From an uncultured Verrucomicrobiae bacterium (lineage in GTDB: Bacteria; Verrucomicrobiota; Verrucomicrobiia; Limisphaerales; UBA11358), in the NCBI GenBank assembly GCA_963711945.1, contig CAVQGB010000005.1, forward strand, positions 175,664-239,663: 64,000 bases of DNA. The letters are read 5' to 3'. Of this stretch, positions 2,197-60,211 are shown one piece after another. The translations under genes were made by a program, and so were the position numbers. The notes beneath the pieces are model-generated. The model saw nothing but the letters and a program-made list of their open reading frames with translations, ran no database searches and was not told the DNA's origin. Each line of letters starts with the position of its first letter. Positions within the stretch are counted from its first letter, which is position 1.

Positions 2197-2597
2197 GCGC
2201 CCTTGGCAAGTTTATTCAGCTTTTCCACACAGGCCCGGAGCATGGGTTCGAGCTTTTCTTTGATCAGCGCAATTGCCTGTTGGGCAATGTCATGTTCATA
2301 CGTGTGGCTGAAAAGATTCCGGCTTTCCAGCGCCTCAAGCCATTCATCTACATCGGTCAGCAATTCCATCTCGAACGCCTTGTTGATGGTTTCTCGCGGA
2401 CTATTGACGGCATAACCCTCAAACGTGAGTTTGTCCTTCAAAGTCTTCCAGCAAAGCTCAAACGTGAATTCGTAGGTCTGAACCAGTCCGGCGACTTCAA
2501 GTTCGTTGTATTCGTCCTGATCGCAGGCATCTTCCAGCCGCTTGAACGCCTTGTTCAGATTTTGCAGTCGTTGTATCCAGCGGTTTTCGTTGCTCAT
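2193..2597 (-). CDS. HEPN-domain protein (HI0074-like nucleotidyltransferase substrate-binding family), putative toxin partner of the MNT domain
   Basis: The internal ATG at 2597 of ORF 2193..2822 gives [24 protein letters not shown]...[12 protein letters not shown] (Rx4H HEPN motif). The ATGA overlap with the hsdM stop (2594-2597) supports this start. The upstream part of the tracked ORF is Arg-rich out-of-frame hsdM sequence. Confidence 0.8.
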
Positions 2598-4260
2598 GCT
2601 TTTCCTGGTTTGTTGTGCTCGCTGAGAGTAACCAAATTCTTCCGGATTGTCTTTTCCAGTTTCGCCGATTCCGCGAACTGTTCTTCCAGCGTCGCGGTGA
2701 GGCGTTTCATCTTTTGCTCGAACGGTTCGCCGTCGTCTTCCATGTCTGCCGCGCCCACATAACGACCGGGCGTGAGGACGTATCCATGCGTCTGGATTTC
2801 TTCGAGCTTCACAGATTTGCAAAAGCCGGGTTCGTCCTGGTAGGGCGCGTCACTCCGTGCGCGCCGCTCACTTGCTTGCCACCAGCGGCTGGCAGGACTG
2901 CCAGCCCTACCTGGTTTCCACGCATGGTAGCAGTCGGAAATTTTGGCAATTTCCTCGGCAGTCAGTTCCCGGTGGATGCGGTCAACCAGCACGCCCATTT
3001 TCCGCGCATCAATGAAAAGGGTTTCACCGCGCCGGTCGCGGCGTTTGTGGTTCTTTTTGTCGCGGGCCAGAAACCAGAGGCAGACGGGAATTTGCGTGGT
3101 GAAAAACAACTGGCCGGGCAGCGCGACCATGCAATCCACGAGGTCGGCTTCAATCAAGGCTTTGCGAATCTCGCCTTCGTTCGAGGTCTGCGTGGACATT
3201 GAACCGTTCGCCATGACGAATCCCGCCACGCCCACGGGCGAGAGGTGATGGATGAAATGTTGAATCCAGGCGTAGTTGGCGTTGTTCACCGGCGGCATCC
3301 CGAATTTCCAGCGCACGTCCTGCCGCAGGTTTTCGCCGCCCCAATCGCTCATGTTGAACGGCGGGTTGGCGAGAATGAAATCGGCCTTGAGGTCGGGATG
3401 CAAATCCGCCCGGAAGCTGTCGGCGTTGCGCGGGCCGAGATTGGCGTCAATGCCGCGAATGGCGAGGTTCATCCGCGCCAGTTTCCAGGTGGTGTAGTTG
3501 GATTCCTGCCCGTAAACCGCGATGTCGCCCACGCGTCCGCCGTGTTCTTCCACGAATTTTTCCGATTGACACGAACATGCCGCCCGAACCGCAGCACGGA
3601 TCGAACACGCGGCCTTTGTAGGGTTCAAGCATGGCGACGAGCACCTGCACGACGCATTGCGGGGTGTAGAACTCGCCGCCGCCCTTGCCTTCCGCGCTGG
3701 CGAACTTGCCGAGAAAGTATTCATAGACGCGCCCGAGCACGTCCTTGGATTTCGCCGCCGATTCGTTGAAGCCGATGTTGCTGATGATGTCCACGAGTCC
3801 GCCGAGCCGGACTTTGTCGAGGCTGGGCCGGGCGTAATCGCGCGGCAGCACGCCTTTGAGCGTGGGATTCTCGCGCTCAATCGCGCCCATCGCGTCGTCA
3901 ATGACCTTGCCAATCTCCGGCGACTTGGCCTTGGCCTTGATGGTGTGCCAGCGGGCTTCGGGCGGCAGCCAGAAGACATTCGCGGCCATGATATTCGTCG
4001 CGGTTCTCGGCGGCTTCGGCGCGTTGCGGTTCGTCTTTGATGAACCATTCGCTCTTGGGATCGGAGAAGCCGAACAGCAGTTGCTCGCGTTTTTCCTCGA
4101 AGGCGTCGGAGATGTATTTCAGGAAGATGAGGCCGAGGCAGACGTGCTTGTATTCCGAGGCGTCCATGTGCCCGCGCATCTTGTCGGCGGCGGCCCAAAG
4201 CTGGGCTTCAAAGTCGAGAGCGGAGCCGTTGGCGGTTTTCTGACTATTTCCCTTAGCCAT
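2594..4260 (-). pseudogene. hsdM: Type I R-M DNA methyltransferase subunit HsdM, interrupted by two frameshifts (near 3990 and near 3571)
   Basis: Three frame pieces join into one Hsd[57 protein letters not shown]... comes from ORF 3898..4260. [13 protein letters not shown]...[34 protein letters not shown] comes from ORF 3447..3989. [11 protein letters not shown]...[11 protein letters not shown]... comes from ORF 2594..4198. The SAM motif DPCCGSGG and catalytic NPPF are present. Confidence 0.85.
2839..2911. repeat. GC-rich palindromic repeat element inside the hsdM 3' region (GGTAGGG...CCCTACC termini)
   Basis: GGTAGGGCGCGTCACTCCGTGCGCGCCG ... GGCTGGCAGGACTGCCAGCCCTACC. The first 28 nt are identical to 10394-10421 in lpdA. 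There are two internal hairpins. It is translated in frame as ...[10 protein letters not shown]... Confidence 0.8.
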
Positions 4261-8954: not shown

Positions 8955-9029
8955 TGGAGCCAATGGCCGGGATTGAACCGGCGACCGACGGTTTACGAAA
9001 CCGTTGCTCTACCGCTGAGCTACATTGGC
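8955..9029 (-). tRNA. tRNA-Thr (anticodon CGU)
   Basis: Minus strand folded by hand: GCCAATG TA GCTC AGCGGTA GAGC A ACGGT TTCGTAA ACCGT CGGTC GCCGG TTCAATC CCGGC CATTGGC T CCA. All four stems pair, the CCA is encoded, and the anticodon loop is TT-CGT-AA. Confidence 0.9.
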
Positions 9030-9334: not shown

Positions 9335-10849
9335 TTATTTTCGTTTTGGCGGGGCGTGGATGCATTCGCCGTGCAAGGCGTGCGCGGCTTCCATCCAGGC
9401 TTCGCTGAAGGTCGGGTGGGCGTGAATTGTCCGGCCCAGCTCTCGCGTGGTCAGTTCGGCGCGAATTACAGCGGCAGCCTCCGCGATGAGTTCCGTCGCG
9501 TGCGGGCCGACAGCGGCGGCACCGAGCAGTTGGTCGGTCGTGGCGTCGGCAATCCATTTCACAAACCCGGCGGTCTCGCCGGTCGCGATACCCTTGCCGA
9601 GGCCGGCAAAACGGAACTTGCCGGTCTTCACGGCGCGATTCTGCTTCTTCGCGTCGTCCTCGCTCATGCCGGCGGTGCCGACTTCCGGCGACGTGAAAAT
9701 CACATTCGGCACAATTGTGTCGTGCCGCCGCAATTTAGCGGGGCAGGCATCTTGCCTGCCATCAGACAGGCTGGAAGCCTGTCCCACTAACGCATTTTCG
9801 GCGGCGGCGATGCCCTGCGTGGTGGCGTAATGCGCGAGCTGGATTTTGCCGGTCACGTCGCCGATGGCGAATATGTTCGCGACCTGCGTGCGGCAATAAT
9901 CGTCCGCCTCGATGATCCCGCGTTCGTTCGTTTTCAACCCGGCGTTTTCCAGTTTCAAACCGTCGGTCACGGGTTTGCGGCCCACGGCGCAGAGCAGCAA
10001 TTCCGCCGTCAAAGTTTCATCTCCGAATTTGCCGCTAATGACAGTGGCGCCATCACCACCGGCGGAGATATTTTCCAGCGCCTTGCCCGTCAGCACGCGG
10101 ATGCCGAGGTTTTTCTCCAGGTGCGCGCGGACTTCGCGGCGCACGTCGGCGTCGAGCAGCAGCAGAATGTCCTTCAGCAATTCGACGATGGTGACCTTGA
10201 CGCCGAGCATCGCGGCCATGCAGGCGAGTTCGCAGCCGATGAAGCCGCCGCCGAGAACAATCATCGTGGCGGGCAATTTCTGGATGTCGAGAAACGCGCG
10301 GCTTTCCACGACGCGCTCGTGCTTCGGCAAAAAGCCGGGCATGGCCGAGGTGGAGCCGGTGGCGATGATGATTTTCTTCGCGCTGATGCGCTCGGTAGGG
10401 CGCGTCACTCCGTGCGCGCCGTTTTCCGGTGGGGCGAGGCTACCGACGAGCCGGCTCGCGGGGACGCTCGCCCCACCGCTGATTTCGATGGTATTGCGGT
10501 CAACAAAACTCGCCGTGCCTGTAAATTGTTTCACGCCGTTGGCGGTGAGCAGCGAGCCGATGCCGCCGCGCAATTGCTGGACGGCCTTGTCCTTGTTGCC
10601 AATCATTTTCGCGTAATCCACCGAGGCGTTCCTGACGGTAATGCCGAATTTTTCCGCGTGTTTGATTTTCTCGAAGGTCTCGGCGGCGGCGATGAGCGCC
10701 TTGGTGGGGATGCAGCCCCAATTCAGGCAGGCGCCACCGAGCCTTTCCTTTTCGATGATGGCGACCCTTGCACCGAGTTGAGCGGCGCGGATGGCCGCCG
10801 GGTAACCGCCGGGACCGGCGCCGATGACTGCAATATCAAATGTTTCCAT
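9335..10849 (-). CDS. lpdA: Dihydrolipoyl dehydrogenase (E3), carrying two in-frame repeat insertions
   Basis: METFDIAVIGAGPGGYPAAIRAA... (FAD motif), redox-active CLNWGCIPTK, C-terminal HAHPTFSEA. At 504 aa it is roughly 40 aa longer than a typical E3. Confidence 0.95.
   Translation of the reverse strand: METFDIAVIGAGPGGYPAAIRAAQLGARVAIIEKERLGGACLNWGCIPTKALIAAAETFEKIKHAEKFGITVRNASVDYAKMIGNKDKAVQQLRGGIGSLLTANGVKQFTGTASFVDRNTIEISGGASVPASRLVGSLAPPENGAHGVTRPTERISAKKIIIATGSTSAMPGFLPKHERVVESRAFLDIQKLPATMIVLGGGFIGCELACMAAMLGVKVTIVELLKDILLLLDADVRREVRAHLEKNLGIRVLTGKALENISAGGDGATVISGKFGDETLTAELLLCAVGRKPVTDGLKLENAGLKTNERGIIEADDYCRTQVANIFAIGDVTGKIQLAHYATTQGIAAAENALVGQASSLSDGRQDACPAKLRRHDTIVPNVIFTSPEVGTAGMSEDDAKKQNRAVKTGKFRFAGLGKGIATGETAGFVKWIADATTDQLLGAAAVGPHATELIAEAAAVIRAELTTRELGRTIHAHPTFSEAWMEAAHALHGECIHAPPKRK
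9738..9787. repeat. Palindromic repeat (two hairpins) inside lpdA
   Basis: GCGGGGCAGGCATCTTGCCTGCCATCAGACAGGCTGGAAGCCTGTCCCAC, with hairpins GGCAGGCA/TGCCTGCC and ACAGGCT/AGCCTGT. It is translated as ...VGQASSLSDGRQDACPAKL... Same family as 14358-14404. Confidence 0.8.
10394..10476. repeat. Composite palindromic repeat inside lpdA
   Basis: GGTAGGGCGCGTCACTCCGTGCGCGCCG (identical to 2839-2866) followed by GGTGGGGCGAGGCTACCGACGAGCCGGCTCGCGGGGACGCTCGCCCCACC (same family as 38738-38805). It is translated as [28 protein letters not shown]. Confidence 0.85.
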
Positions 10850-10895
10850 AAATTATACTTGTTGAAGTTCGTGCTTTATTGCAGTTCAAGAAAAA

Positions 10896-11086
10896 CTGTA
10901 GCCGTGGCGCCGCAAAACGTGACTGGGAGCGCACGCGCCTCGCGTGCCGTGGTTGACACCCCGTCAACCACCTTGGCGCGCCATCGCGCCTGTTTCAACG
11001 CGCGGTGGCGCGCGTTGCCCCGGCCGCGAAGGCGCGGTCGGATGCACGCGAGGCGCGTGCGCTCCCTATTCAGTTTGCGGCCACGG
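10896..11086. repeat. Long (~190 nt) imperfect palindromic element in the E2-E3 intergenic region
   Basis: The left arm ...CCGTGGCGCCGCAAAACGTGACTGGGAGCGCACGCGCCTCGCGTG pairs with the right arm CACGCGAGGCGCGTGCGCTCCCTATTCAGTTTGCGGCCACGG. Internal hairpins include GGTTGACACCCCGTCAACC and CAACGCGCGGTGGCGCGCGTTG. Confidence 0.8.
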
Positions 11087-11103
11087 TTTTTACTGAAATG
11101 CTC

Positions 11104-11148
11104 TAGCGTGCTTCGCGGAGAACAACCTGAAGGTTGAACTCCAACGAA
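11104..11148 (-). repeat. 45-nt conserved intergenic motif, copy 1 (immediately downstream of the E2 stop)
   Basis: TAGCGTGCTTCGCGGAGAACAACCTGAAGGTTGAACTCCAACGAA. 40/45 positions are identical to 14898-14942. It contains the perfect palindrome CAACCT-GA-AGGTTG. Confidence 0.75.
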
Positions 11149-11149
11149 C

Positions 11150-12478
11150 CTACGCCGTCAGTTTTTTCCAGAGTTCAATGTCCTCGAGTTTTTGTTTAAT
11201 GGCATTGACGAACTTAGCGCCGAGCGCGCCGTCCACGATGCGATGGTCGCACGAAAGCGTGAGTTTCATCATGTGTCGCACGACGATTTTGTCACCGCGC
11301 ACGACCGGTTGCGGCTTGATGCTCGCGACGCCCAGGACGGCACTTCCGCCGGGATTGATGATGGGGCCGAAGCTTTCCACATCCATCATGCCCAGGTTGG
11401 AGATGGTGAACGTGCCGCCGCTCAATTCGTCCGGAGTGGCCTTGCCGGTGCGCGCCTTTTCAATCAGCGTCTTCGATTGCCGGCAGAGTTCCATCAACGG
11501 CAGTTGCTCCGCCGCGCGGATGACGGGCACAACCACGCCCTGGTCCACCGTCACGGCGATGCCGAGGTTGACGTGGCTGTTCCAACGCATGACCCGGCCG
11601 TCGGTCGAGCTGTTCAGCTCGGGAAATTCCTGCAATTTCATCACCACCGCCTGGGCGATGAAATCGGTGACGGTGTAGGGCGCGCCCGCGGCCTTCAACT
11701 GGTTGCGGTAGCCGAGCAACTCCGTCATGTCCACGGAAATGGTGACATAGAAATGCGGCGTGTCGCGGAAACTCTGCGTGAGCCGTTGCGCGATGACTTG
11801 GCGCATATTGCTCATCAGCTTCGGTCGCTCGGCAATGGCGCGCTCGACGTTGGCCACGGTGATGCGACCGGAATTTTCCACCGCTTGAATCGCCAGCACG
11901 TCGAGTTTTTCCATGGCCGCGAGTTTCTTGGCGGCAGACGAGATGCGTAACTGGTCGTAGCCGTGCTGCTGCAAATAATTCCGCACGTCCTTTTCCACGA
12001 TGCGGCCTTCGGGACCTGTGCCTTGAATGCGCGCGGCGTCAATGACGGAATGTTTCGCCAGCGCCGCCGCGCGCGGACTGATGCGGAACACTGCCGGAGC
12101 TGCCGGAGCGACCGGCGCGGCAACGGGCGCCGCACCTGGGGCGGGAACCGCCGCCTGTATGATCGCTGCGCGCGCCGCTGACGCAACCGCGGATTTGGGC
12201 GCGGCGGGCGCCGGCACGGTGATGGCCGGAATCGGTTCGCCCGGTTGGCCGAGAAAACCGACCGTGCTTTGCACCGGCACGCTGACGCCCGGCGGCACGG
12301 CGATTTTCAGCAACGTGCCTTCCTCGAAACTTTCCACCTCCATGACTGATTTGTCAGTCACGACGGTGAAAAGGATGTCGCCTTTGACAACTTGCTCCCC
12401 TTCCATCTTGAGCCATTCAACGATGGCGCTTTCCTCGGTCATCTGACCGAACTTCGGCATGATGATTGGTGTGGCCAT
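11150..12478 (-). CDS. Dihydrolipoamide acyltransferase (E2) of a 2-oxoacid dehydrogenase complex
   Basis: N-terminal lipoyl domain (MATPIIMPKFGQMTEE...VVTDKSVMEVESF), Ala/Pro linker, E3-binding segment, and the catalytic motif LSCDHRIVDGA. Confidence 0.95.
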   Translation of the reverse strand: MATPIIMPKFGQMTEESAIVEWLKMEGEQVVKGDILFTVVTDKSVMEVESFEEGTLLKIAVPPGVSVPVQSTVGFLGQPGEPIPAITVPAPAAPKSAVASAARAAIIQAAVPAPGAAPVAAPVAPAAPAVFRISPRAAALAKHSVIDAARIQGTGPEGRIVEKDVRNYLQQHGYDQLRISSAAKKLAAMEKLDVLAIQAVENSGRITVANVERAIAERPKLMSNMRQVIAQRLTQSFRDTPHFYVTISVDMTELLGYRNQLKAAGAPYTVTDFIAQAVVMKLQEFPELNSSTDGRVMRWNSHVNLGIAVTVDQGVVVPVIRAAEQLPLMELCRQSKTLIEKARTGKATPDELSGGTFTISNLGMMDVESFGPIINPGGSAVLGVASIKPQPVVRGDKIVVRHMMKLTLSCDHRIVDGALGAKFVNAIKQKLEDIELWKKLTA

Positions 12479-12487
12479 GACGTTCCG

Positions 12488-14893
12488 TTAAAGGATTTTG
12501 CAGGCGGCGGCCATGAGGTCGTTGACGTTCGGGAGGAACGCTGCCTCGAGAATGTGCGATTGTGGCGCGATGCCGTTTTTGGCCCCGACGCGTTTCACGG
12601 GGGCGTCGAGATAGTCGAACACCGCGTCCGAAATCGTCGAGGCGATTTCGCCGGTGTAACTGCCGATGTGAATCGCCTGGCTGGCGACAACGCACCGGCC
12701 GGTCTTTTGCACCGAGCGCAAAATCGTGTCGAGGTCGAGCGGCACGAGCGAGCGCAGATCAATCACCTCGGCGCTGACGTTTTTCTCCGCCTTCAATTTG
12801 TCCGCCGCCTTCAGGCAGTCGTGGACGAGCGGACCCCACGTCACGAACGTGATGTCCGAGCCTTCACGTTTTACGTCGGCCACGCCGAGCGGCACGAGAT
12901 AATCTTCCGCCGGCACCGGGCCTTTCATGCCATACAAACCCTGCGATTCGATGAACATCACGGGATTGTTGTCACGAATAGCGGATTTCAACATGCCCTT
13001 CGCGTCATACGGCGTTGCGGGATAAACCACGTAGAGGCCGGGGATGTGGCAGAACATGGATTCGAGCGTCTGCGAATGCTGGCCACCGTAGCCCTTGCCC
13101 GCGCCGGCGGAAACGCGCAGCACGAGCGGCACCTCGGTCTGTGCGCCGCTCATGTAATGCCATTTCGCGGCCTGGTTGCTGATCTGGTCGGACGACATCA
13201 ACGCGAAATCGAAATACATCAACTCCATGACCGGACGCAGGCCAATCATCGCCAGGCCAACGCCCGTGCCGCAGATGCACGCCTCGGAAATCGGCGTGTT
13301 GAACACACGGTCGCGCCCGAAGGATTCCATCAATCCCTTCGTCGCCTTGAACGCGCCGCCGTAATCGGCCACGTCCTCTCCGTAAAACAGGACGCGCTGA
13401 TCGCGCTTCATTTCCTCCATCATCGCCTCGCGAATGGCGTCCTTGTAGGTGATTTCGCCGTTGACACGCTTGATTTCCGGAAGCGCATCAATGATTTCAA
13501 CGTTCGCGAATTCCGCCGGCACGGTCTCGCCCTTCGTGTCGGTGAACATGTATTTGATGACGTCCCCGGCAACCGGGTCGGCGGCGGCGGCGGCGCGCCT
13601 GGCGGCTCGGGCGTTGCGGTCGCGGACGGCAGCTTCGAGCGCGGCGAGTTCCTTCGCGGTCGAAACCTTGTTCTCCAGAATCTGCGCTTTGAATGTTTCG
13701 ATGGGATCAACGGACTTCCACGCGGCTTCCTCTTCCTTTGTGCGATATTCATTGCGCGGGTCGCTCAACGAGTGGCCCCAATAACGGTAGGTGTCGCAAT
13801 CGAGCAGCACCGGGCCTTCGCCCTTCCGGCAAATTTCCGTGGCGCGATTCACGGCATCGCGAACGGCGAGCGGGTCCATGCCGTTGACGATTTCGGCGTG
13901 CATGTTGTTGTCGGCAAAACCGGCGGCGCGGCGCGCGATGCGGCTCACGCCCATCACTTCATCGTCGGTGCGGTGCGTCATGCCGTAATGATTGTTGGTG
14001 ATGAGGAAGATCATCGGCACGCCGAACTTGCGATCGGCCAGATGGTTCGTGAATTGCGCCTGCGTGGCGTAGTTCAATGACTCCAAAACCACGCCGTTGG
14101 CGAAGGCGCCGTCGCCGGCGAAACAGCAAACCACCGCGTCCTTTTTCTGATAACGCAGCCCAACCGCTGCGCCCGTGGCAATCGGCACGCCGCCGCCGAC
14201 GATCGCGTTCGCGCCGAGATGTCCAACGGAGAAATCCGCAATGTGCATCGAGCCGCCGCGGCCTTTGCAATAGCCGTCCTCTTTTCCGAACAATTCGCAA
14301 ATCATGCGATAAACGTGTTGTTCGAGCGCGGCTTCCAGCAGTTCCTCTCTCGATACTGTGGCGGGCATCTTGCCTGCCAACAGCAGGCTGGAATCCTGCT
14401 CCACCAATCGTTTTCTCAATTGTTCGTCGCTCATTTCGCGGATGGCGACCGTGCCCTTGGCAAGGCTTTCGCCGTGGCCGCGGTGCGTGCTGGTAATTTT
14501 GTCGGCGATGTGCAGCACGGAGCACGCGCCCGCCGCCGTGCCTTCCTGCCCGACCGAGACGTGCGTCGGCCCGCGATAATTGAATTCGCGGATCGGCTCA
14601 TACGCGCCGGAGCGGAGTTTGACGATCATTTCCTCCAGTTCGCGGATCATCAGCATGTCCTCGAACAGATTCACCGCCTCCTCTCTGGTGATTTTGTTTG
14701 CGGCCAGCTCCTGTTTTAGACTGCGCTGGAAGCAGTAGGCTGAAATCTTGCCGCAGTTGATTTCGAACGGCTCGAACTTGGGCCGCATATTGCTCAAATA
14801 CGTCGCCGACTTTCTCTTATTCGGCTTTCCACCCCTCTTCTCGTCCGGCTTTTCCAGTATTGCAGTTGTCATAATATTCAAGTTGGAGATCAC
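12488..14893 (-). CDS. 2-oxoacid (pyruvate/acetoin/branched-chain type) dehydrogenase E1 component, fused alpha and beta subunits
   Basis: 801 aa. The alpha part carries the TPP motif GDGAFANGVVLESLN. The beta part reads ...YGEDVADYGGAFKATKGL...PISEACICGTGVGLA... The tracked start is GTG at 14893; ATG at 14872 (MTTAILEK) is an alternative. Confidence 0.9.
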   Translation of the reverse strand: MISNLNIMTTAILEKPDEKRGGKPNKRKSATYLSNMRPKFEPFEINCGKISAYCFQRSLKQELAANKITREEAVNLFEDMLMIRELEEMIVKLRSGAYEPIREFNYRGPTHVSVGQEGTAAGACSVLHIADKITSTHRGHGESLAKGTVAIREMSDEQLRKRLVEQDSSLLLAGKMPATVSREELLEAALEQHVYRMICELFGKEDGYCKGRGGSMHIADFSVGHLGANAIVGGGVPIATGAAVGLRYQKKDAVVCCFAGDGAFANGVVLESLNYATQAQFTNHLADRKFGVPMIFLITNNHYGMTHRTDDEVMGVSRIARRAAGFADNNMHAEIVNGMDPLAVRDAVNRATEICRKGEGPVLLDCDTYRYWGHSLSDPRNEYRTKEEEAAWKSVDPIETFKAQILENKVSTAKELAALEAAVRDRNARAARRAAAAADPVAGDVIKYMFTDTKGETVPAEFANVEIIDALPEIKRVNGEITYKDAIREAMMEEMKRDQRVLFYGEDVADYGGAFKATKGLMESFGRDRVFNTPISEACICGTGVGLAMIGLRPVMELMYFDFALMSSDQISNQAAKWHYMSGAQTEVPLVLRVSAGAGKGYGGQHSQTLESMFCHIPGLYVVYPATPYDAKGMLKSAIRDNNPVMFIESQGLYGMKGPVPAEDYLVPLGVADVKREGSDITFVTWGPLVHDCLKAADKLKAEKNVSAEVIDLRSLVPLDLDTILRSVQKTGRCVVASQAIHIGSYTGEIASTISDAVFDYLDAPVKRVGAKNGIAPQSHILEAAFLPNVNDLMAAACKIL
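14358..14404. repeat. Palindromic repeat inside the E1 gene
   Basis: GTGGCGGGCATCTTGCCTGCCAACAGCAGGCTGGAATCCTGCTCCAC. Same family as 9738-9787. It is translated in frame as VEQDSSLLLAGKMPAT. Confidence 0.8.
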
Positions 14894-14897
14894 GCTT

Positions 14898-14942
14898 TAG
14901 CGTGCTTCGCCACAGACAACCTGAAGGTTGAACTCCAACGAA
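14898..14942 (-). repeat. 45-nt conserved intergenic motif, copy 2 (immediately upstream of the E1 start)
   Basis: TAGCGTGCTTCGCCACAGACAACCTGAAGGTTGAACTCCAACGAA, 40/45 identical to copy 1. The minus-strand reading contains GGAG and the CAACCT/AGGTTG hairpin just 5' of the E1 start. Confidence 0.75.
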
Positions 14943-14958
14943 GCGCCGCGAAAATAAT

Positions 14959-23590: not shown

Positions 23591-25387
23591 TTAAGCCATC
23601 AGGTCGTAGTCAGTGTGGCCGATGATTTTGACTTTGGCGAATTCGCCAATGGGCAATCTGCCGCGCCCGCCTTCGCCTTGCTTCGACGCGGCAAGAATGT
23701 AAATCCGGCCGTCAATGTCCGGCGCGTCGGCTTCACCGCGGGCGATTAACGTAGGGCAGGCGTCCCGCCTGCCCAATTCCCCCTGTTCGATGCTTTCTCT
23801 TTTGCCCGGCGCAGGCGGGACGCCTGCGCTACTTTCCGCCCGAATCTGTCCATGTTCCCACGATGAAACTTTCGCCTGTTGAAGCTGCTTCGCGTCAGCC
23901 CTGCCTTCGACAAGGACTTTGATTTCGCGGCCGACAAAACTTTCGGAGACAGACACGGCGACCTTGTGTTGCTCGGCCATCGCCAGTTCGCGGCGTTTTT
24001 GCTTCACCTTGTCGGGTATCTGCCCGCCCATCGCGCCGGCGCGGGTGCCGTCCTCCTTGGAATAGGCGAACACACCGAGCCGCTCGAATTTCGTCTCGCG
24101 GATGAAATCGAGCAGCGTGTTGAAGCTCGCCTCCGTCTCGCCGGGAAAACCGACGATGAACGTTGTCCGCAGCGCGATGCCCGGCACGCCGGCGCGGATT
24201 TTGCGGATGAGGTCCACGATATACTGCTGCGAGGTTTCGCGGCGCATCCGCTCGAGCATGTTCTCGTGAATGTGCTGGAGCGGCATATCCACGTAACGCG
24301 CCACCTTCTGGCAACTCGCAATCGTTTCAATCAACTCATCCGTCCAATGCGCCGGATGGGTGTAGAGCAGGCGGATCCAGAAATCGCCTTTCAACGAATT
24401 GAGTTCGCGGAGCAGCGTGCATATGGTCGTGGCATCGGCGGCCAGCGATTGGGCGGCGGCGGAAAATTTCTCCGGCGACGAAATGGCGCGCGAGTGATTG
24501 GGCCGCAAATCCAATCCGTAGTAGGTCGAGTCCTGCGAGATGAGATTGATTTCTTTCACGCCGTCGGCGATGAGCGCCTTGGCCTCGGCAACGATGTCTG
24601 CCTGCTGCCGGCTGCGATGCGAACCGCGCATCCGCGGAATGATGCAGAAGCTGCACGGATGGTTGCAGCCCTCGGCGATTTTAACATAGGCGAAATGTCG
24701 CGGCGTGAGCCGGAAGCGCGGCGTGGCGAAGTCGGGAATAAAGACGGGCCGTTGCGTGACATCGAGAATGGCGGCGCTCTGCCGAGACGCCGCTACGACG
24801 GTCTTGGTTTTGCCGAATTTACCTGTGCCCCGGATGGCATTCCCTGTTTCGTGATCGGAAATGGCACGATTATTTTCCAATTCATTCAGTCGCGCGGAGA
24901 TTTTTCCCTTCGATGTTGGGTGTTCAATGTTCGATGTTCGATGTTTTCCGCCGGTTTTTTCCGCTCGATTGGCAATGGCCTTGCCGACGATTTCACCAAC
25001 CTGCGCGACTTGATCAATGCCCATGAACGCGTCCACTTCCGGGAGCAGTTTGGGCAGCTCCTCGCGAAACCGCTGCGGCAGGCATCCGGAAACGATGACG
25101 GCCTGGCCGCGATTGGCCGCCTCGCGCAATTCAACCGATTCCAAAATCGTGTCCACGCTCTCCTCCTGCGCGGAGTCAATGAAGGAGCAGGTGTTGACGA
25201 TGACGGCGTCAGCCTGCGCGGCGTCGTTGGTGATTTCGACGCCGGATTTCAGGAGGGTGCCGAGCATGATTTCGGCGTCCACGAGGTTTTTGGCGCAGCC
25301 GAGCGAAATCAAGCCGACGCGCAAGTGATCCTGCCCTCCGGTCGTTGGCCCGGCGGGCGGGCGTTCATTGGATTTTTTCCCTGTCAT
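23591..25387 (-). CDS. rimO: Ribosomal protein S12 methylthiotransferase RimO, with two internal repeat-derived insertions
   Basis: MTTase N-domain LISLGCAKNLVDAE...VNTCSFI, radical-SAM motif EGCNHPCSFCIIP, and a C-terminal TRAM region. The start is chosen at MTGKKSNE (25387). Confidence 0.9.
   Translation of the reverse strand: MTGKKSNERPPAGPTTGGQDHLRVGLISLGCAKNLVDAEIMLGTLLKSGVEITNDAAQADAVIVNTCSFIDSAQEESVDTILESVELREAANRGQAVIVSGCLPQRFREELPKLLPEVDAFMGIDQVAQVGEIVGKAIANRAEKTGGKHRTSNIEHPTSKGKISARLNELENNRAISDHETGNAIRGTGKFGKTKTVVAASRQSAAILDVTQRPVFIPDFATPRFRLTPRHFAYVKIAEGCNHPCSFCIIPRMRGSHRSRQQADIVAEAKALIADGVKEINLISQDSTYYGLDLRPNHSRAISSPEKFSAAAQSLAADATTICTLLRELNSLKGDFWIRLLYTHPAHWTDELIETIASCQKVARYVDMPLQHIHENMLERMRRETSQQYIVDLIRKIRAGVPGIALRTTFIVGFPGETEASFNTLLDFIRETKFERLGVFAYSKEDGTRAGAMGGQIPDKVKQKRRELAMAEQHKVAVSVSESFVGREIKVLVEGRADAKQLQQAKVSSWEHGQIRAESSAGVPPAPGKRESIEQGELGRRDACPTLIARGEADAPDIDGRIYILAASKQGEGGRGRLPIGEFAKVKIIGHTDYDLMA
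23751..23832. repeat. Inverted pair of ~24-nt hairpin repeats inside the rimO 3' region
   Basis: GTAGGGCAGGCGTCCCGCCTGCCC ...34 nt... GGCGCAGGCGGGACGCCTGCGCTAC. It is translated as ...SAGVPPAPGKRESIEQGELGRRDACPT... Confidence 0.8.
24909..24943. repeat. Heptanucleotide tandem repeat (TTCGATG-like, 5 units) inside rimO
   Basis: TTCGATG TTGGGTG TTCAATG TTCGATG TTCGATG. It is translated (minus strand) as ...HRTSNIEHPTSKG... Confidence 0.8.
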
Positions 25388-25497
25388 AGGCGGGAAATGG
25401 TAACGAGGATTTGAACTGAAGCAATCTTGTGGATGGGGGGATGGCGTGCCGAGTTCCAAAGGCATGGGCCGCCGACACGGCGCCCTTCCCCCAAGGT

Positions 25498-38498: not shown

Positions 38499-38737
38499 GG
38501 CTTACTTCATCGCCCGGGCGATGCTGTTCCACCAGGCGTCGTGCAAGTTCGGTGAGCGGAGCGGAGAATTCGCCTGCTGGCGGTTTTCACCGTCAGCTTG
38601 TCGCCGCCGACCTTGCCGATTTGCACCGCCGGCACGCCCATCAGTTTGGCGCGTTCCACGACTTTCACCGCGTCGAGCGGCTTTGCAACTGATGACGATG
38701 CGCGATTGCGTTTCGCCGAACAGCAGCGCATCCAATC

Positions 38738-38805
38738 GGTGGGGCGAGGCTCCTGACGAGCCGTCGTCCGCCTGCCCATCGGATCGCGAGGACGCTCGCC
38801 CCACC
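38738..38805. repeat. Palindromic repeat (GGTGGGGCGAGGCT...GACGCTCGCCCCACC family) inside purL
   Basis: GGTGGGGCGAGGCTCCTGACGAGCCGTCGTCCGCCTGCCCATCGGATCGCGAGGACGCTCGCCCCACC. Its termini are identical to the copy at 10428-10476. It is translated as SVGRASSRSDGQADDGSSGASPHR. Confidence 0.8.
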
Positions 38806-40457
38806 GATGACAAATCAATCGTCGCGCCAATCAGCCGCGGCGTCTCGCGGGCGACGAGCTGGCTGATGCAGCTTTCGGCCAGGCACACCGCCAGGCCGCC
38901 TTCGCTGCAATCATGCGCGCTTTTCACCACAGCCGGATTGAATCAAGCCGAGCAGCGTCGTGTGCAAGGTTCTTCGCCTGTTTCCAGATCGCAGCGCGGC
39001 GGCGTGCCGGTTTTCTTTCCGTGAATCGCCTGCAAATACGCCGAGCCGCCCAGACCGAGAATCGGGTCGGCTTTGTCCACGATTTCGCCGAGCAAAATGA
39101 TCGCGTCGCCCTCGTCCTTGAACCATTGCGTCGTGACGTGCTCCGGTTTTTCAATCAGGCCCACCACCACCACCGTCGGCGTCGGGTCAATCGGGCCGTT
39201 CGGGCTTTGGTTGTAGAGCGAGCAATTGCCGCCGGTGACCGGCGCGTTGAACGCCCGGCAAGCCTCGGCCAGTCCGCGCACGGATTCCTTGATTTGCCAG
39301 AACAACTCCGGCTTCATCGGGCTGGGCATGTTGAGATTGTCGGTCGTGCCCAGCGGCACCGCGCCGGAACAGGCCAGGTTGCGGCACGCCTCGGCCACCA
39401 CAATCTTCGCGCCTTCGTAGGGATCGAGATAAACGTAAGTGCCGTTGCCGTCCGACGTGAGGGCGATGAGTTTTTCGGGCGTGGATTTTGCCGCCGGCTA
39501 ATTCGGGCAGCGAATCGGTCTTGATGCGCAGCACCGCCGCGTCGCTGCCGGGACAAACCACCGAGCCGTCGCGCACCATGTGGTCGTATTGGCGGTAAAC
39601 CCAGTTCTTCGACGCGATGGTCGGCCACGCGAGCAGCTTCTTCAAATCGCCAGCGGCGATCTTGCGTGTCGGCGATTCCATCCAGCCGGAACGCGCGGAC
39701 TTCCTTCAAATACTCCGGCTCGCTGCGCCTCGCGCTGGTAAATCGGCGATTCGTCGGCAATTTTCTTCGCCGGAATGTCGGCGACAATTTTTCCGCCGTG
39801 GCGCACGACCATCCGGCCCGTGTCGGTGACGAATGCCGATTTCCGACCACGGCAAATCCCATTTGTCGAAAATCCGCTTCACTTCCTCCTCGCGGCCTTT
39901 GTGGACGATGATGAGCATGCGCTCCTGCGATTCGCTCAGCATGATTTCGTAGCTGGTCATGTTCGGCGCGCGCTGCGGCACCTTGTCCAGTTCGATTTCG
40001 ATGCCCGTGCCGGCGCGCGCGGCCGTTTCGCAGGTGGAGCAGGTCAAGCCCGCCGCGCCCATGTCCTGAATGCCCGCGACCGCGCCGGTGGCGAGCAATT
40101 CGAGGCAGGCTTCGCAGACGAGTTTTTCCATGAACGGATCGCCCACCTGCACCGCGCCGCGCTGTTGCTCGGCGGATTCCTCGGTCAAATCCTGCGACGC
40201 AAACGCCGCGCCCGCCAGGCCGTCGCGACCCGTGGCCGGGCCGACGTAGAAAACCGGATTGCCGATGCCCTTGGCCGCGCCGCGCGCGATTTGTTCGTGG
40301 CGCAGCACGCCGAGGCAGAAGGCGTTCACGAGCGGATTGCCTTCGTAGGATTTGTCGAAATAAACCTCGCCCGCGATGGTCGGGATGCCGAAGCAATTGC
40401 CGTAATGCGCGATGCCCGCCACGACGCCGGCAAACAGGCGGCGGTTGTTCTGAATCT

Positions 40458-40591
40458 GGGGAGCACACGCGCCCTCGCGTGTGGCCGACAACGCCCCGTC
40501 GTCGGCACAATGCCGCCACCGCGCGTTGCGTCTCGCGCGTGGGCGCGCTCGGCGCGGTTGATGAGGCGTCAACCGCCACAGCCGGGTCGGC
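40458..40591. repeat. ~134-nt palindromic element inside purL (related to the 10896-11086 element)
   Basis: GGGGAGCACACGCGCCCTCGCGTG...GGCTGTGCTCCCC. Compare GGGAGCGCACGCGCCTCGCGTG in the intergenic element. It lies between the conserved PurL segments SLRFGPI and [13 protein letters not shown], and the reading frame changes across it. Confidence 0.7.
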
Positions 40592-41059
40592 TGTGCTCCC
40601 CATTCCATTTCCGCATTCCGTGATCGGCCCAAACCGCAGCGAGTTCACCGCGCAAATCGGCCGCGCGCCCATCGTGAAAATGTCGCGCACGATGCCGCCG
40701 ACGCCGGTGGCCGCGCCTTGAAACGGCTCGACCGCGCTGGGATGATTGTGCGACTCGATCTTGAACGCGATGGCCATGCCGTCGCCGATGTCAATGATGC
40801 CGGCGTTTTCCTCGCCCGCGCCGACGAGGATTTTCGGCGACTTGGTGGGAAAGGTCTTGAGCAGCGGGCGCGTGTTTTTGTAGCTGCAATGCTCGCTCCA
40901 CATGACGGAGAAAATGCCCAGCTCGGTGTAGCTCGGCGTGCGGCCGAGGACTTCCTTGACATGGGTGTATTCCTCCGGCGTGAGGTTGTGCTTCGCGACG
41001 AGTTCGGGGGTGATGGCGGGTTCGGTCATGGCAAAACTTTTGGTTCTGAGTGAAATGAT

Positions 41060-52870: not shown

Positions 52871-54876
52871 ATGACCGAACTGGAGCGCATCCGGCATTCC
52901 GCCGCGCACGTCATGGCCACCGCCATTCTGCGCCTGTGGCCGGACGCGCAATTCGCCGCCGGGCCGCCGGTCGAGAACGGCTTTTACTACGACGTGGACT
53001 TGCAGCACCGCATCTCGCCGGAGGATTTCCCGACCATCGAGGCCGAGATGAAAAAGGAGATCAAGGCGAACCACACCTTCGAGAAAATCGTCGTCACGCG
53101 CGAGCAGGCGCTGAAGGATTCGCGAGAGCGGACGGCTCGGCGGCCTGACCGAGCGGCCGGGCAATCCGAGCAAGTTCAAGATCGGCAACCTCGAAGCCAT
53201 TCCCGAAGGCGAGCCGATCACCTATTTCAAGAACGGCGATTTCATTGACCTCTGCGCCGGGCCGCACGTGATGCGCACCGGCAACATCGGCGCGTTCAAG
53301 CTCACCAGCGTGGCCAGCGCGTATTACAAGGGCGACGAGAACAACCCGCAGCTCCAGCGCATCTACGGCACGGCGTTCAAGAACAAGACCGAGCTGGACG
53401 AGTATTTCAAGATGCTCGAGGAGGCCAAGCGCCGCGACCATCGCAAGATCGGCCAGGAGATGGGGCTGTTCGCGATTGACACCGAATACATCGGGCCGGG
53501 CCTGCCGCTGTGGCTGCCCAAAGGCACGGCCATCGTCGAGGAACTGGAAAAGCTGGCGAAGGAAACGGAATTCGCCGCCGGCTACGTGCGCGTGAAAACG
53601 CCGCACATCGCGCAAGGAGAAAATGTATCTAACGTCCGGCCATCTGCCGATTCTTTACGCGGAATCAATGTTTCCGCCGATGAGGCTACAGTTTGAAGGA
53701 AAGGACAAAGCCGAGAGACAATGCGCTTGAAACTGGCCAAAGACGAATACGAAAAGAATTGGATATCAGGTTACTTAGATTCCGCGACAACTGATGACCG
53801 AACGATTTTCAGAATCAAGAAGCTTGCTAACAACGCGAAGTCATACAAGACAGCAGCTTGCCCGAGACGAAGTCTTGGCAAGGCCGAGAAAGATCTCGAG
53901 GCAGAGCGCTATTACCTCAAAGCCATGAACTGCCCGCATCATCACCGCATTTTTGCGGCGGAGCCGCGCAGTTACCGCGATCTGCCGTTGCGGCTGGCCG
54001 AATACGGCACCTGCTACCGCTACGAGCAGTCGGGCGAATTGTTCGGCCTCATGCGCGTCCGCTCGCTCAACATGAACGACGCGCACATCTATTGCACGCC
54101 GGAGCAGTTCGCCGCCGAGTTCAACGCCGTCAACGAAATGTATCTGAAGTATTTCAAGATTTTCGGCATCGAGAAATACGTGATGCGCTTCAGCACGCAC
54201 GACCCGTCGCGCCTGACCGGCGACAAGCAAATTCGTCAACGAACCGGAATTGTGGAAGCAGACGGAGGACATGGTCCGCAAGGTTTTGATTGATTCGAAG
54301 ATTCCCTACGTCGAGGTGCCGAACGAGGCGGCGTTTTACGGGCCGAAGATTGACGTGCAGGTCTGGAGCGTCATCGGCCGCGAATTCACGCTGGCGACGA
54401 ACCAGGTGGACTTCGCCGTGCCGCGAAAATTCGGCCTGGTCTATCGCGACAAGGACAACACGGACAAGACGCCGCTGTGCATCCATCGCGCGCCGCTGGG
54501 CACGCACGAGCGGTTCATCGGCTTCCTCATCGAGCATTACGCCGGCAATTTCCCGCTCTGGCTCGCGCCGGAGCAGGTGCGCGTGCTGACCATCGGCGAG
54601 GAGGAGCCGCTGGTGAATTACGCCAAGGCCATCGTGCAGCGAACTGCGCGCCAACATGGTCCGCTGCCGAAGCGATTTCACGCACGAACAAGATCAACGG
54701 CAAGATTCAGGAAGCCGAGCAGGCGAAAGTCCACACCATGCTGGTCATCGGCGGCCGCGACATGGACGCCGGGAACGTTTCCGTGCGTCTGCACGGCAAA
54801 GGCAACCTCGGCGCGAAGCCGAAGGGCGAAGTCGTGGCGGACATTCTGGCGAGCGATCAAAGAGCGAAGAAAATGA
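52871..54876 (+). pseudogene. thrS: Threonyl-tRNA synthetase (no TGS domain), with about 5 single-base frameshifts plus a 173-nt insertion
   Basis: MTELERIRHSAAHVMATAILRLWP...GFYYD (editing domain), ...DLCAGPHV..., ...DHRKIGQEMGLF..., MNCPHHHRIFAAEPRSYRDLPLRLAEYGTCYRYEQSGELFGLMRVRS (class II motifs), and ...HRAPLGTHERFIGFLIEHYAGNFPLWLAP... The pieces are spread over ORFs 52811..53248, 53268..53696, 53721..54293, 54250..54876 and 54477..54905. Confidence 0.9.
53707..53889 (+). mobile_element. 173-nt low-GC insertion in thrS bounded by a 10-nt direct repeat (AAAGCCGAGA / AAGGCCGAGA)
   Basis: The direct repeats lie at 53707-53716 and 53880-53889. Deleting 53707-53879 joins ...GGA AAG GAC | AAG GCC GAG AAA... 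and restores MFPPMRLQFEGKDKAEKDLEAERYYLKAMNCPHHH in one frame. Confidence 0.45.
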
Positions 54877-54901
54877 CAGGAACCAGCCTTAAAGCAGCCT
54901 T

Positions 54902-56488
54902 ATGAAAACCGACGGGGGTGAGGCAATTCGGATAAGGGTGATTTGGAAGGCTTGCTTGTATTTGGGGGTTTCGGCGTTTGTTTTCTTTCTGGTCTTTTGC
55001 AATCTGGACGGGCGTTTGTTTTGGGGCGACGAGGCGGAGACGGCGGTTCTTGCAAAAAACGTCTTGAAGTTCGGCATCCCAAAAGTTGACGACGGGGTCA
55101 ATCTTGTCACGTTCAACGGAGGCCAGCTCGATGCGAGCGCGGGCGGCATCTGGACGTGGTCGCCTTGGTTGCAGGAATACATCACCGCCGGGTCGTTCGC
55201 CATTTTCGGCCCGACGACGTGGGCGGGCCGCGCGCCATTTGCCCTGATCGGATGGTTGGATGTGGTTTTGCTCGGCGTCGTGGCGTGGAAAATCCACCGG
55301 AGCCATCGCGTGGCGCTTGCGAGCATGATCTTGATGGGCACCTCGGAAATTTTTCTGCTGCACACCCGGCAATGCCGCTACTACTGGATATCAGTCCTTG
55401 GGGAAATTCTGTTCGTCTGCGGCATCCATCAACTTTTCACGCAAAAGCGGCGGGGCATCTGGATCGCGGCAGCGGCCCTGATTCTGCAATTTTACAGCAA
55501 CTACATCATCGCGGCGGCCAACATCCCGGCGCTGATCGTTCTGGCCTGGATGTTGCGCACACGGGGCAAACGCGCCGTGTTGGACGTGGCCGTGATTCCG
55601 GGTGTCTTGCTGGCCGCAGCGCTGCCCTGGCTGGTTTATGCGCATCCGTGGGTTCAGGCACACGCGGTTGGCGGGGAAAATATTTTCACGAAGGCGTGGT
55701 ATTATTTGAGGGAGTTCAATTTTCATTTTCTGCCACTATGTTTTCTGTTGTTGCCGCTTCTTGGCTGGATTCCGGTTCGCGGGGGCGGGCAAAAAAACGG
55801 GCTGGAGGTTGTGCCGCCGTGGGAAAGATTTGCGCTGGTCCTGCTCCCGTTGTATCTGGCCGTCATTGTGATGGTTCCGGGCGTTTTTCTGCGTTATCTG
55901 CTGCCCCTGTTGCCGGTTGCGTGCCTATTGGCGGCCGGGTGGGTGTTTCGCCATGTCAGATGGCGCGCGCTGGCGTTCGCGGTGCTGGCCGTTCAGTGCA
56001 TAACCAATGCGTTTCCCATCGCAACCGCCTATCCCTTTAGGGAATTTCACCAGCTTCGCAGCCCCTTGCTGGGATATGTGGCCGGCATCACCGAACCTTA
56101 CGAGGACCGTTTCACCGACGTGCTGAAGTTCTTGAATGAGCAAAGCCATCCTAGCGAGACCATTTTGACATGGGATCCGGAACTTCCCATTGTCTTCTAC
56201 ACCCAGCTCAAGGTCATTGACGCCCGCTTCACTGGCACGGCGGCGATGTCCCGGTTGCCGGACTGGATTTTGCCTGAAAGCGCTTCGAGCGTCCTGAAAG
56301 TGATGCCCGTCACACTGCCGGATTATTGTGAATCACATTATGCGCCCATTGCTCTGGATGTTCACGATTCGGCCAGGGGCGACAATTATCCCGAACCCGA
56401 TTACCACCGAGGCCAGAGCACCCCGAAACGCGCGGCCTTTGTCATTTACAAGTTGAAAACCGGCGCGCAGGAAAAGACGGCAGATTAA
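54902..56488 (+). CDS. GT39/ArnT-like membrane glycosyltransferase
   Basis: 528 aa with about 11 TM helices. The N-terminal GRLFWGDEAETAVLAKNVLKFGIP... resembles the acidic motif of GT-C glycosyltransferases. The C-terminal domain is soluble. Confidence 0.7.
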   Translation: MKTDGGEAIRIRVIWKACLYLGVSAFVFFLVFCNLDGRLFWGDEAETAVLAKNVLKFGIPKVDDGVNLVTFNGGQLDASAGGIWTWSPWLQEYITAGSFAIFGPTTWAGRAPFALIGWLDVVLLGVVAWKIHRSHRVALASMILMGTSEIFLLHTRQCRYYWISVLGEILFVCGIHQLFTQKRRGIWIAAAALILQFYSNYIIAAANIPALIVLAWMLRTRGKRAVLDVAVIPGVLLAAALPWLVYAHPWVQAHAVGGENIFTKAWYYLREFNFHFLPLCFLLLPLLGWIPVRGGGQKNGLEVVPPWERFALVLLPLYLAVIVMVPGVFLRYLLPLLPVACLLAAGWVFRHVRWRALAFAVLAVQCITNAFPIATAYPFREFHQLRSPLLGYVAGITEPYEDRFTDVLKFLNEQSHPSETILTWDPELPIVFYTQLKVIDARFTGTAAMSRLPDWILPESASSVLKVMPVTLPDYCESHYAPIALDVHDSARGDNYPEPDYHRGQSTPKRAAFVIYKLKTGAQEKTAD

Positions 56489-56503
56489 TATGATTGGCGC
56501 CGC

Positions 56504-56587
56504 GTCCGTCTGCGCGGCAAAGGCAACATCGGCGCGAAGCCGAAGGGCGAAGTGGTGGTGGCAATCACAAAGCGGCGGGCATGGTGA
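56504..56587 (+). other. Remnant duplicate of the thrS 3' end
   Basis: 56504-56561 matches 54784-54841 at 53/58 positions by hand alignment. It reads VRLRGKGNIGAKPKGEVVVAITKRRAW-stop, against thrS VRLHGKGNLGAKPKGEVVADIL... Confidence 0.7.
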
Positions 56588-56608
56588 AAAACGAGGCCGG
56601 CTGGCGTC

Positions 56609-56776
56609 CTACTTTTTCTCCGTCTTGCCGCATTTTCGTTTGGCCACAGCCTGGCGCAAGACATATTCGATCTGGCCGTTAATGCTGCGCAATTCATCCG
56701 CCGCCCATTTCTCCAGTTCCTTCCGCAAATCCGGCTGAATCCGCAGCAGAAACGGTTTGCGTTCCTCGCTTGGCAT
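56609..56776 (-). CDS. Arc/MetJ-type ribbon-helix-helix DNA-binding protein (55 aa, below the ORF-track cutoff)
   Basis: Hand translation: [55 protein letters not shown]. This is the Arc-like pattern FLLRIP..L...L...A....RS.N..IE..L. The start lies 7 nt after the SPFH gene stop. Confidence 0.6.
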
Positions 56777-56782
56777 GACGCT

Positions 56783-57805: not shown

Positions 57806-58284
57806 AAATGATTTCTTCTGTTATCGTTATGATATCATATTGCTATCTCAAGTCAAGTTTTTTGTTTTTTGTATTCAATGGACTGTGAGAATGTTACGGA
57901 GTGACCGCGGAAATATTGGCAAGCATCAATGTTCTGCGGAATTGATTTTATTCATTCGGAGGGTCGCTGGGGTTGCCAAATGAAGGAAGCATGCTTTTAT
58001 TTCGGAGAATTCGCGCGGAATAAATTTGAACTTCCGGGAGAACGTGATAGGTTTTTGCACGGTTTCCAATGCAAATGCTTCCTTCAAGGACTGGAAGCAA
58101 GGGTTTTGACGCCGGGTTGGCCCTTTAGGTTGCGGGAAACGTAGCATTTTATTAAATCCAATTGCGATCACGAGCTGGTCGGCGCGGGACAGGTTTTTCG
58201 GCAAACCCACTTCCTCGTGTTTTCGTGTCGCCATTTCCCAATTCTTGATCCATCAATCTGCCGAACCAAGAAAGGCCACCGCTT

Positions 58285-59934: not shown

Positions 59935-60211
59935 CCGCCTTGTCGCGCATCCCGGCAACAAGATGAAGGACGGTATGCGGGTGACAACCCGATGAAAAGT
60001 CAGGGGCCTCCAGCACGGACAGCGGGTTTCAATGGCTGTGGGATTTCATACTAAGGCATGACTTGGATTGCAGGCATTGGAACTCAAAGGTTATATATGT
60101 ATTTTGCGGGAACGCACCTGTGTTTCAGGTGGACAAGTTCCCATCCTCCATTTCGAGGTGCGCTCATTAAAATCGAACGAATCCGCCTGTCGGCCCGTCA
60201 AAAATGCGCCT

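Follow-up and report, generated by a model that had tools for sequence, protein, structure and literature searches.

Repetitive extragenic palindromic (REP) sequences with a GTAG tag were defined as a superfamily by Di Nocera, De Gregorio and Rocco (2013, BMC Genomics 14:522; PMC3733652), who described inverted dimers, including heterodimers, genes for REP-associated tyrosine transposases (RAYTs) flanked by REPs, and intragenic REPs, which were most numerous in Opitutus terrae. In that species, the intragenic REPs are mostly dimers encoding 20–30 residues, at times two per gene, and their hosts include phosphoribosylformylglycinamidine synthase, 2-oxoacid dehydrogenase subunits, HrpA, and a methyltransferase (PMC3733652). 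Rickettsia palindromic elements (RPEs) are in-frame palindromic insertions in many unrelated housekeeping genes, whose proteins are extended and not inactivated (PMC10969869, PMC3733652); short RPEs belong to a CGTC-tagged class with no dedicated transposase known (PMC3733652). Here, we analyzed a 64,000-nucleotide stretch of the genome of an uncultured Verrucomicrobiae bacterium (contig CAVQGB010000005.1, positions 175,664–239,663; hereafter, the window), in which one 28-nt sequence, GGTAGGGCGCGTCACTCCGTGCGCGCCG, occurs both in hsdM, a type I methyltransferase gene, and in lpdA, the E3 gene of a 2-oxoacid dehydrogenase operon. We consider it highly probable that this 28-mer is a GTAG-headed REP and that its two copies are independent members of a genome-wide REP/RAYT repeat population that have survived in frame in protein loops.

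Both copies of the 28-mer lie on the plus strand, at 2839–2866 and 10394–10421, and are identical at 28/28 positions. Shuffled sequences gave an expectation of 0 copies by chance, and no other copy was found across the 64-kb window with up to three mismatches allowed. A preliminary description of the window had reported the same 28-mer in hsdM and lpdA, with the same orientation relative to each host and in two different reading frames, and this was borne out: both host open reading frames (ORFs) are on the minus strand, and both of the peptides given there were recovered in the host translations. It had further placed the hsdM copy in a 73-nt unit (2839–2911) with GGTAGGG...CCCTACC ends and two hairpins. 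We confirmed these termini, and the fold of the unit comprised a terminal stem in addition to two hairpins (dG −20.4 kcal/mol, z = −2.5), whereas the 28-mer alone formed a 6+3-bp stem (dG −10.3 kcal/mol, z = −3.0), which places it in the 20–40-bp class of palindromes. The suggestion that such an element persists in coding sequence because several of its frames are free of stops also held, as four of the six frames were open in the 28-mer and likewise in the 73-nt unit; the other two are interrupted by the TAG of the GTAG head and by a TGA on the opposite strand. The overall proposal of a dispersed palindromic element similar to a REP or a miniature inverted-repeat transposable element (MITE) was supported and can be refined to a GTAG-headed REP associated with a RAYT-like gene, and no classical MITE.

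Judged by its sequence, the 28-mer is a classical GTAG-headed REP, comprising a GTAG head and an imperfect GC-rich hairpin, and we name it REP-A. We surveyed the family by scanning one genome per species for the exact 26-nt core, which was present in at least 119 stretches from at least 79 assemblies and is thus not confined to the two sites in the window. The figures in this paragraph for assemblies, partners, and contigs refer to the matches listed. Nearly all assemblies with the core were labeled Verrucomicrobiota (Limisphaerales, Pedosphaera, subdivision 3), and up to six REP-A-bearing contigs came from one metagenome-assembled genome (MAG). Alignment of the flanks showed that a spacer of variable length (median 21 nt) separates REP-A from an inverted REP that follows it. 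In 61 cases, this partner was REP-B (forward GTAGGGCGGGCAGTCCTCTGCCCGCC); 43 copies were paired with REP-A itself (approximately 22 dimers) and 12 with another CCCTAC-ended sequence, while eight REP-A copies were single; an inverted REP-A or REP-B partner lay within 150 nt of 104 of the 124 exact copies. Some MAGs labeled Bifidobacterium, Klebsiella, Hyphomicrobiales, Sulfotelmatobacter, or Akkermansia muciniphila also bear REP-A, in GC-rich Verrucomicrobiota-like contigs (loci including L009, L010, L016, L024–L026, L034, L038, and L053), and these bins have probably been assigned to the wrong taxa.

The 73-nt unit in hsdM reads as an ordinary REP-A/REP-B heterodimer, the commonest architecture of the family. 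REP-A (2839–2866, plus strand) and a REP-B variant arm (2886–2911, minus strand; GGTAGGGCTGGCAGTCCTGCCAGCC) face each other in inverted orientation with heads outward across a 19-nt spacer, and the variant arm differs from the common partner, GGCGGGCAGAGGACTGCCCGCCCTACC, by a compensatory stem change. All REP types that we encountered have a GTRG-type head, a TCC-like loop, and covarying stems; REP-A, REP-B, and a further type, REP-D, carry GTAG heads, and REP-C and the types at a second site in lpdA carry GTGG or GCGG heads. In addition to the two REP-A copies, a Hamming scan of the window yielded approximately eight further REP units, and the units span 28–88 nt. No Rfam family matched any REP type or repeat site.

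A candidate transposase accompanies REP-A in related genomes. Three loci (L008, L061, and L098) encode a protein of approximately 150 aa with LLMPDHLHAII, WQRDFFDH, and YILMNPVRKGL motifs, and the three proteins are mutually 63–75% identical. The protein matched the NCBIfam profile NF047646, "REP-associated tyrosine transposase", over profile positions 7–142 of 146 (E = 1.3e-18), and its best PDB match was E. coli TnpA-REP (4er8; E = 8.6e-6); this alignment matched the HUH, WQxxFxxH, and catalytic-tyrosine (YIxxNPV) motifs of the two proteins. In all three cases, the gene is bracketed by inverted doublets containing REP-A (in L061, in the order A>..<B, gene, B>..<A), which is the defining arrangement of RAYT/REP systems.

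Like the GTAG-tagged REPs of PMC3733652, among them the intragenic REPs of O. terrae, the elements described here have a GTAG or GTGG head and a 6–9-bp GC stem, belong to several families that coexist in a genome, form inverted dimers (heterodimers among them) with variable spacers, flank RAYT genes, and occupy similar hosts (purL, 2-oxoacid dehydrogenase subunits, HrpA, and methyltransferases). However, the sequences of REP-A and REP-B differ from those of the O. terrae families GTAG-17 to -20, which encode peptides such as VGPALAAG, and the REP-A and REP-B peptides and the core were absent from the tables of PMC3733652 and from the searchable literature. The same 26-mer is present here in at least 79 species, with at least 22% of copies intragenic. 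As in the system of REP doublets forming hairpins (REPINs) and their RAYTs (Bertels and Rainey 2011, PMC3116915) and in the bacterial interspersed mosaic elements (BIMEs) and TnpA-REP of E. coli (4er8), the units are inverted doublets with long-hairpin potential, and a small HUH/Y1 gene with HUH and catalytic Tyr motifs is bracketed by doublets. Unlike the symmetric REPIN, the common unit here combines two REP types into a heterodimer, like the Y/Z BIMEs of E. coli; moreover, REPINs are described as extragenic, whereas REP-A has a large intragenic share, and the RAYT falls under the NCBIfam cutoff. In-frame insertion into unrelated protein-coding genes is a property shared with RPEs, but RPE-1 measures approximately 100–150 bp and is Rickettsia-specific, in contrast to the shorter, GTAG-headed, and RAYT-associated elements found here. 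The repeats are therefore a new family, or several new families, whose kind and behavior are already known, and the presence of REP-A in hsdM and lpdA is essentially explained by existing knowledge.

The lpdA gene (9335–10849, minus strand) has an intact ORF that encodes 504 aa with Pyr_redox_2 and Pyr_redox_dim domains; its operon neighbors, E1 (12488–14893) and E2 (11150–12478), are also intact. LpdA orthologues at 75–90% identity are 459–485 aa long. REP-A at 10394–10421, which is read as GAHGVTRPT, does not form a 73-nt unit of the kind seen in hsdM and instead belongs to an 84-nt composite insertion of 28 codons (10394–10477; site 1), made up of a doublet of a third REP type, 7 nt, and REP-A. 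This REP-C doublet (10427–10480), GTGGGGCGAGCGTCCCCGCGAGCC with its inverted copy, adjoins REP-A and is a near-perfect palindrome (dG −21.5 kcal/mol, z = −3.7). Site 1 lies between NTIEIxG and RISAKKIIIATGS, and the composite is absent from the empty-site orthologues P0068, P0074, and P0110, which are 459–460 aa long. The site holds a single REP-C (GGASVPAS, +18 nt) in P0001, P0014, and P0066, a REP-B/REP-A doublet (GRAGSPLPA...GAHGVTRPT, +54 to +75 nt) in P0018, P0015, and P0081, a degenerate REP-B/REP-A doublet in P0002, and other REP types in P0064 and P0096. At the DNA level, these elements share codon boundaries, and all of their lengths are multiples of 3 nt. In a quick, unbootstrapped neighbor-joining tree, the empty, B–A, and C states were scattered, and P0081 (B–A) was sister to P0110 (empty). 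The same gene carries a second insertion (9738–9787; site 2), a doublet of two further GTGG/GCGG-headed REPs with a net gain of 45 nt and the peptide LVGQASSLSDGRQDACPA, which, among the orthologues compared, is common only to the window and P0001.

When LpdA was aligned to the E3 of T. thermophilus (2eq6), chain residues 127 and 128 were adjacent across query residues 126–152, and a gap fell at the second insert; no solved E3 structure had a counterpart to LpdA residues 126–152. The preliminary description had proposed a comparison of orthologues as a check on its interpretation, and the segment is missing from the 459–460-aa LpdA proteins, from the solved E3 structures, and from HsdM homologues. 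Both segments are, on these alignments, insertions.

At hsdM, the position of the repeat was given correctly in the preliminary description, but the gene has no intact ORF. It spans 2594–4260 on the minus strand, with Pfam domains distributed among three frames: N6_Mtase (N-6 DNA methylase, HsdM type) is found in the ORF at 2594–4198, whereas HsdM_N and the first 66 positions of N6_Mtase sit in two other minus-strand frames, 3898–4260 and 3447–3989. The two +1 frameshifts are single-base insertions, GAATAT-C-ATGGCC near 3990 and TTCGTG-T-CAATCG near 3566, neither of which is in a homopolymer, and both are upstream of the repeat. Hence, the copy probably resides in a pseudogene or in a locally erroneous stretch of the assembly. 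The downstream frame is kept through the repeat, so that the protein is continuous from YHAWK across the heterodimer, which is read in frame. HsdM homologues have 5–10 variable residues between YHAWR and YxDxPGFC, compared with approximately 25 in the window. Between hsdM and hsdS (670–2822), we also observed a HEPN-like/nucleotidyltransferase pair, in which the nucleotidyltransferase (Polbeta) domain shares one ORF with HsdS specificity domains (670–2196), an apparent fusion or lost stop codon.

Insertion into genes is not peculiar to these two hosts. The window contains six intragenic REP elements in five genes, namely hsdM, lpdA (twice), E1, a MiaB/RimO-like gene, and purL. In E1 (minus strand), a REP doublet of the lpdA site-2 type lies in frame at 14356–14404 (peptide VEQDSSLLLAGKMPAT); the head-plus-hairpin types at this position and at 9738–9787 are GTGGGACAGGCTTCCAGCCTGTC with GCGGGGCAGGCATCTTGCCTGCC. 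The MiaB/RimO-like radical-SAM gene carries a REP-D doublet, GTAGGGCAGGCGTCCCGCCTGC with its inverted copy, at 23748–23835, in frame directly before the TRAM domain (dG −28.8 kcal/mol, z = −6.0). In a purL fragment, a REP-C doublet, SVGRASSRSDGQADDGSSGASPHR, a relative of that in lpdA, lies in frame at 38735–38808. Within this last element, CTGACGAG was considered as a hammerhead ribozyme candidate and rejected, as the motif is not conserved in the lpdA copy and Rfam gave no match. A nested palindrome cluster, apparently an extragenic member of the same kind of repeat, occupies 10925–11066 in the spacer between E2 and lpdA (10850–11149). A perfect 23-nt inverted repeat (10925–10947 and 11044–11066) surrounds a palindrome at 10977–11036 there, and the arrangement resembles a cluster of REP-like units.

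Across the survey, 30% of REP-A copies lay in stop-free stretches with at least 100 codons on each side, compared with 48% of random positions in the same loci (at least 119 loci). This ORF-spanning test overestimates the number of coding copies; we therefore checked 30 candidate ORFs by Pfam. Of these, 22 were real, with domains flanking or spanning the insert; in two the insert was upstream of the true start, one (L094) was uncertain, and five were unsupported. At least 27 of the 125 REP-A copies, a minimum share of 22%, lie in frame within genes verified by Pfam, and, together with the six elements of the window, these copies show that the repeats are not strictly extragenic. The hosts include GlnRS, LeuRS, MetH (two insertions), a NuoM-like protein, PrmC, XdhC, PrpD, a MoaE–MoeA linker, the C-terminal region of HrpA, DNA methyltransferases, peptidase U32, an AddB-like nuclease, HGD-D, an MqnC-like radical-SAM protein, and a GH57 enzyme. 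Furthermore, protoporphyrinogen-oxidase-like enzymes of two species carry REP-A at one common site, a paralogous Pyr_redox_2 enzyme (L013:4251–5843) carries a REP-A doublet in the loop equivalent to that of LpdA, directly before the IIATGS strand, and a Ser/Thr kinase (L083:316–2355) and its paralogue in L083 carry REP-A doublets in the activation loop, between DFG and APE. Such shared loops in paralogues indicate either a target preference or a common structural tolerance.

Taken together, these observations suggest the following course of events. REP-A would normally exist as an inverted doublet with heads outward, paired with REP-B or with itself across a spacer of approximately 21 nt, that is, in a BIME/REPIN-like architecture. 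The doublets would be non-autonomous; the RAYT, an HUH/Y1 enzyme whose substrate is hairpin DNA in single-stranded form, presumably copies them in trans, and insertions may land anywhere. Intragenic copies would survive where the length is a multiple of three, a stop-free frame is available, and the site is a surface loop or an inter-domain linker; the tolerated load would be 6–30 extra residues rich in Gly, Ala, Arg, Pro, and Ser, which are presumably translated and neutral for the host protein. The two reading frames at hsdM and lpdA are then a by-product. The identity of the 28-mer at the two sites reflects the conservation of the REP arm throughout the family and implies no relationship between hsdM and lpdA.

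Several results weigh against this interpretation. The score of the RAYT-like protein against NF047646 (67 bits) is under the curated cutoff of 80, and its Pfam Y1_Tnp match is weak (E = 0.003). No RAYT gene was found when the 64-kb window was searched by motif, and the association with a RAYT accordingly rests on related genomes. As hsdM is frameshifted, the copy there is uninformative with regard to tolerance in a working protein. An AlphaFold2 model of LpdA based on a 17-sequence alignment was poor (mean pLDDT 51), with the lowest confidence exactly at residues 126–150 and 357–380, and the exposure of the loops consequently rests on the alignment to solved structures. Finally, the REP-A arm of lpdA is identical at 27/27 positions in the window, P0018, P0015, and P0081 and at 26/27 in P0002, while third codon positions of these lpdA genes differ by 22–29%. 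With the gene-average rate, the probability of zero changes in 27 sites is approximately 0.01, and with the third-position rate it is approximately 2e-4; a single old neutral insertion would not explain the invariant arm. The pattern could have arisen by repeated insertion at a specific site, by precise excision, by conversion from other copies in the genome, or by selection acting on the hairpin.

In the strongest alternative, intragenic copies are not neutral passengers but are maintained by a role of the hairpin in DNA or mRNA and homogenized by gene conversion from other copies; possible roles include a binding site for RAYT or gyrase, an RNase or mRNA-stability element, and a translational pause at domain boundaries. 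We regard this alternative as rather improbable; several observations favor it. The invariant lpdA arm is found in four diverged lineages, while the spacers and left arms of the same elements change. At site 2, the window and P0001 differ by one compensatory double change in each of the two hairpins, together with all four of the four spacer bases, and the main REP-A variant combines A13G with T19C, which is again compensatory. Many inserts are also located at domain boundaries (GlnRS, MoaE–MoeA, PrmC, XdhC, and GH57). However, linker locations are equally expected from a tolerance filter, and fresh copies recurrently inserted at a preferred target would also yield identical arms; the hosts are unrelated, orthologues with an empty site occur at three places on the tree, and P0002 retains a degenerate copy. 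As a separate observation on lpdA, the spacers between REP-B and REP-A in P0015 and P0002 (GGTGTCGCTGACACC) and in P0081 (GGTGCCTCTGGCACC) are themselves small hairpins, one compensatory pair apart (loci L123, L124, and L125).

A more ambitious version of the REP/RAYT interpretation can be put forward only tentatively. A single live, site-preferring REP/RAYT system may have kept a near-invariant 26-nt arm over an order-level group of Verrucomicrobiota (at least 79 species) with transposases 63–75% identical, colonizing coding sequences at an unusually high rate (at least one copy in five), repeatedly entering, leaving, or overwriting one codon boundary in a housekeeping gene, and actively maintaining its hairpins within ORFs, as the compensatory changes and invariant arms would indicate. 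If so, the copies would not be decaying passengers, protein loops and linkers would be continuously remodeled, and the target rule of REP insertion and excision could be read from filled and empty sites.

The elements could alternatively be classical MITEs, that is, deletion derivatives of an insertion sequence moved by a DDE transposase via terminal inverted repeats, as might be supposed from the small size and dispersal of the 73-nt unit and its inverted GGTAGGG/CCCTACC termini. This is very unlikely. A target-site duplication was sought at the hsdM and lpdA boundaries and between filled and empty orthologous sites, and none was found at any copy examined, which argues against a classical MITE; nor was a parent insertion sequence found within the window. 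Furthermore, the associated gene encodes an HUH/Y1 RAYT-like protein and not a DDE enzyme, the inverted termini correspond to the heads of two distinct REP hairpins, and REPs also occur singly.

A conserved peptide module or linker common to HsdM and LpdA, selected for its amino-acid sequence, is highly improbable, even though the inserts keep the frame and many proteins contain GAHGVTRPT. Unrelated peptides result from the intragenic REP-A copies, which occur in both orientations and in each of the four open frames, and this excludes selection for a particular peptide. Conservation resides at the nucleotide and hairpin level, most copies are outside verified genes, and the segment is missing from solved homologues and from close orthologues. 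Artefacts of assembly or sequencing, such as chimeric reads or adapter-like sequence collapsed into two genes, are a negligible prospect: the window does show damage (two frameshifts in hsdM and at least seven frame changes in purL), but at least 79 independent assemblies, from many projects and sequencing platforms, contain the element, at orthologous in-frame positions.

Reading the repeats as members of a REP/RAYT population has consequences for annotation, as REPs account for odd Gly/Ala/Arg/Pro-rich insertions in many verrucomicrobial proteins and for many spurious short ORFs, and they should not be taken for shared domains. For protein evolution, the hosts illustrate a bacterial mobile DNA by which essential enzymes repeatedly gain 6–30 residues in their loops and linkers. 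With regard to REP biology, empty, singly filled, doubly filled, and remodeled states of the lpdA loop form a natural series at identical codon boundaries, which could inform how a RAYT chooses its target and whether excision is clean. Specialists may find three features worth attention: one exact arm in at least 79 species, the high intragenic fraction, and a dynamic hot spot in lpdA whose evolution preserves the hairpins.

Some further features of the window were observed. The purL gene (38500–41059, minus strand) contains at least seven reading-frame changes over 2.6 kb and a nested palindromic insertion of approximately 140 nt at about 40457–40597 (GGGGAGCACA...TGTGCTCCCC); its neighbors and the run of genes at 20–37 kb are intact, and the damage is therefore local. 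A 56-nt direct repeat with an internal hairpin (84% identical, no match in Rfam) occurs at 11100–11155, the E2 end of the E2–lpdA spacer, and at 14894–14949, immediately 5' of the E1 start, and may be a shared leader or regulatory element within the operon. The MiaB/RimO-like radical-SAM ORF (23591–25465) is approximately 150 aa longer than usual and includes a heptamer-like run at about 24906–24944 (AACATCGAACATCGAACATTGAACACCCAACATCGAA; peptide HRTSNIEHPTSKG); a similar TSNIQHPTSN peptide in the MetH of L066 suggests a second kind of in-frame repeat. A tRNA gene (8958–9029, minus strand) was the only Rfam match in the window. Lastly, the region at 53275–60808 contains two 59-nt repeats that are 92% identical (54782–54840 and 56503–56561) and a four-copy 20-mer spaced at approximately 1.5–1.7 kb, which together suggest tandem paralogous genes.

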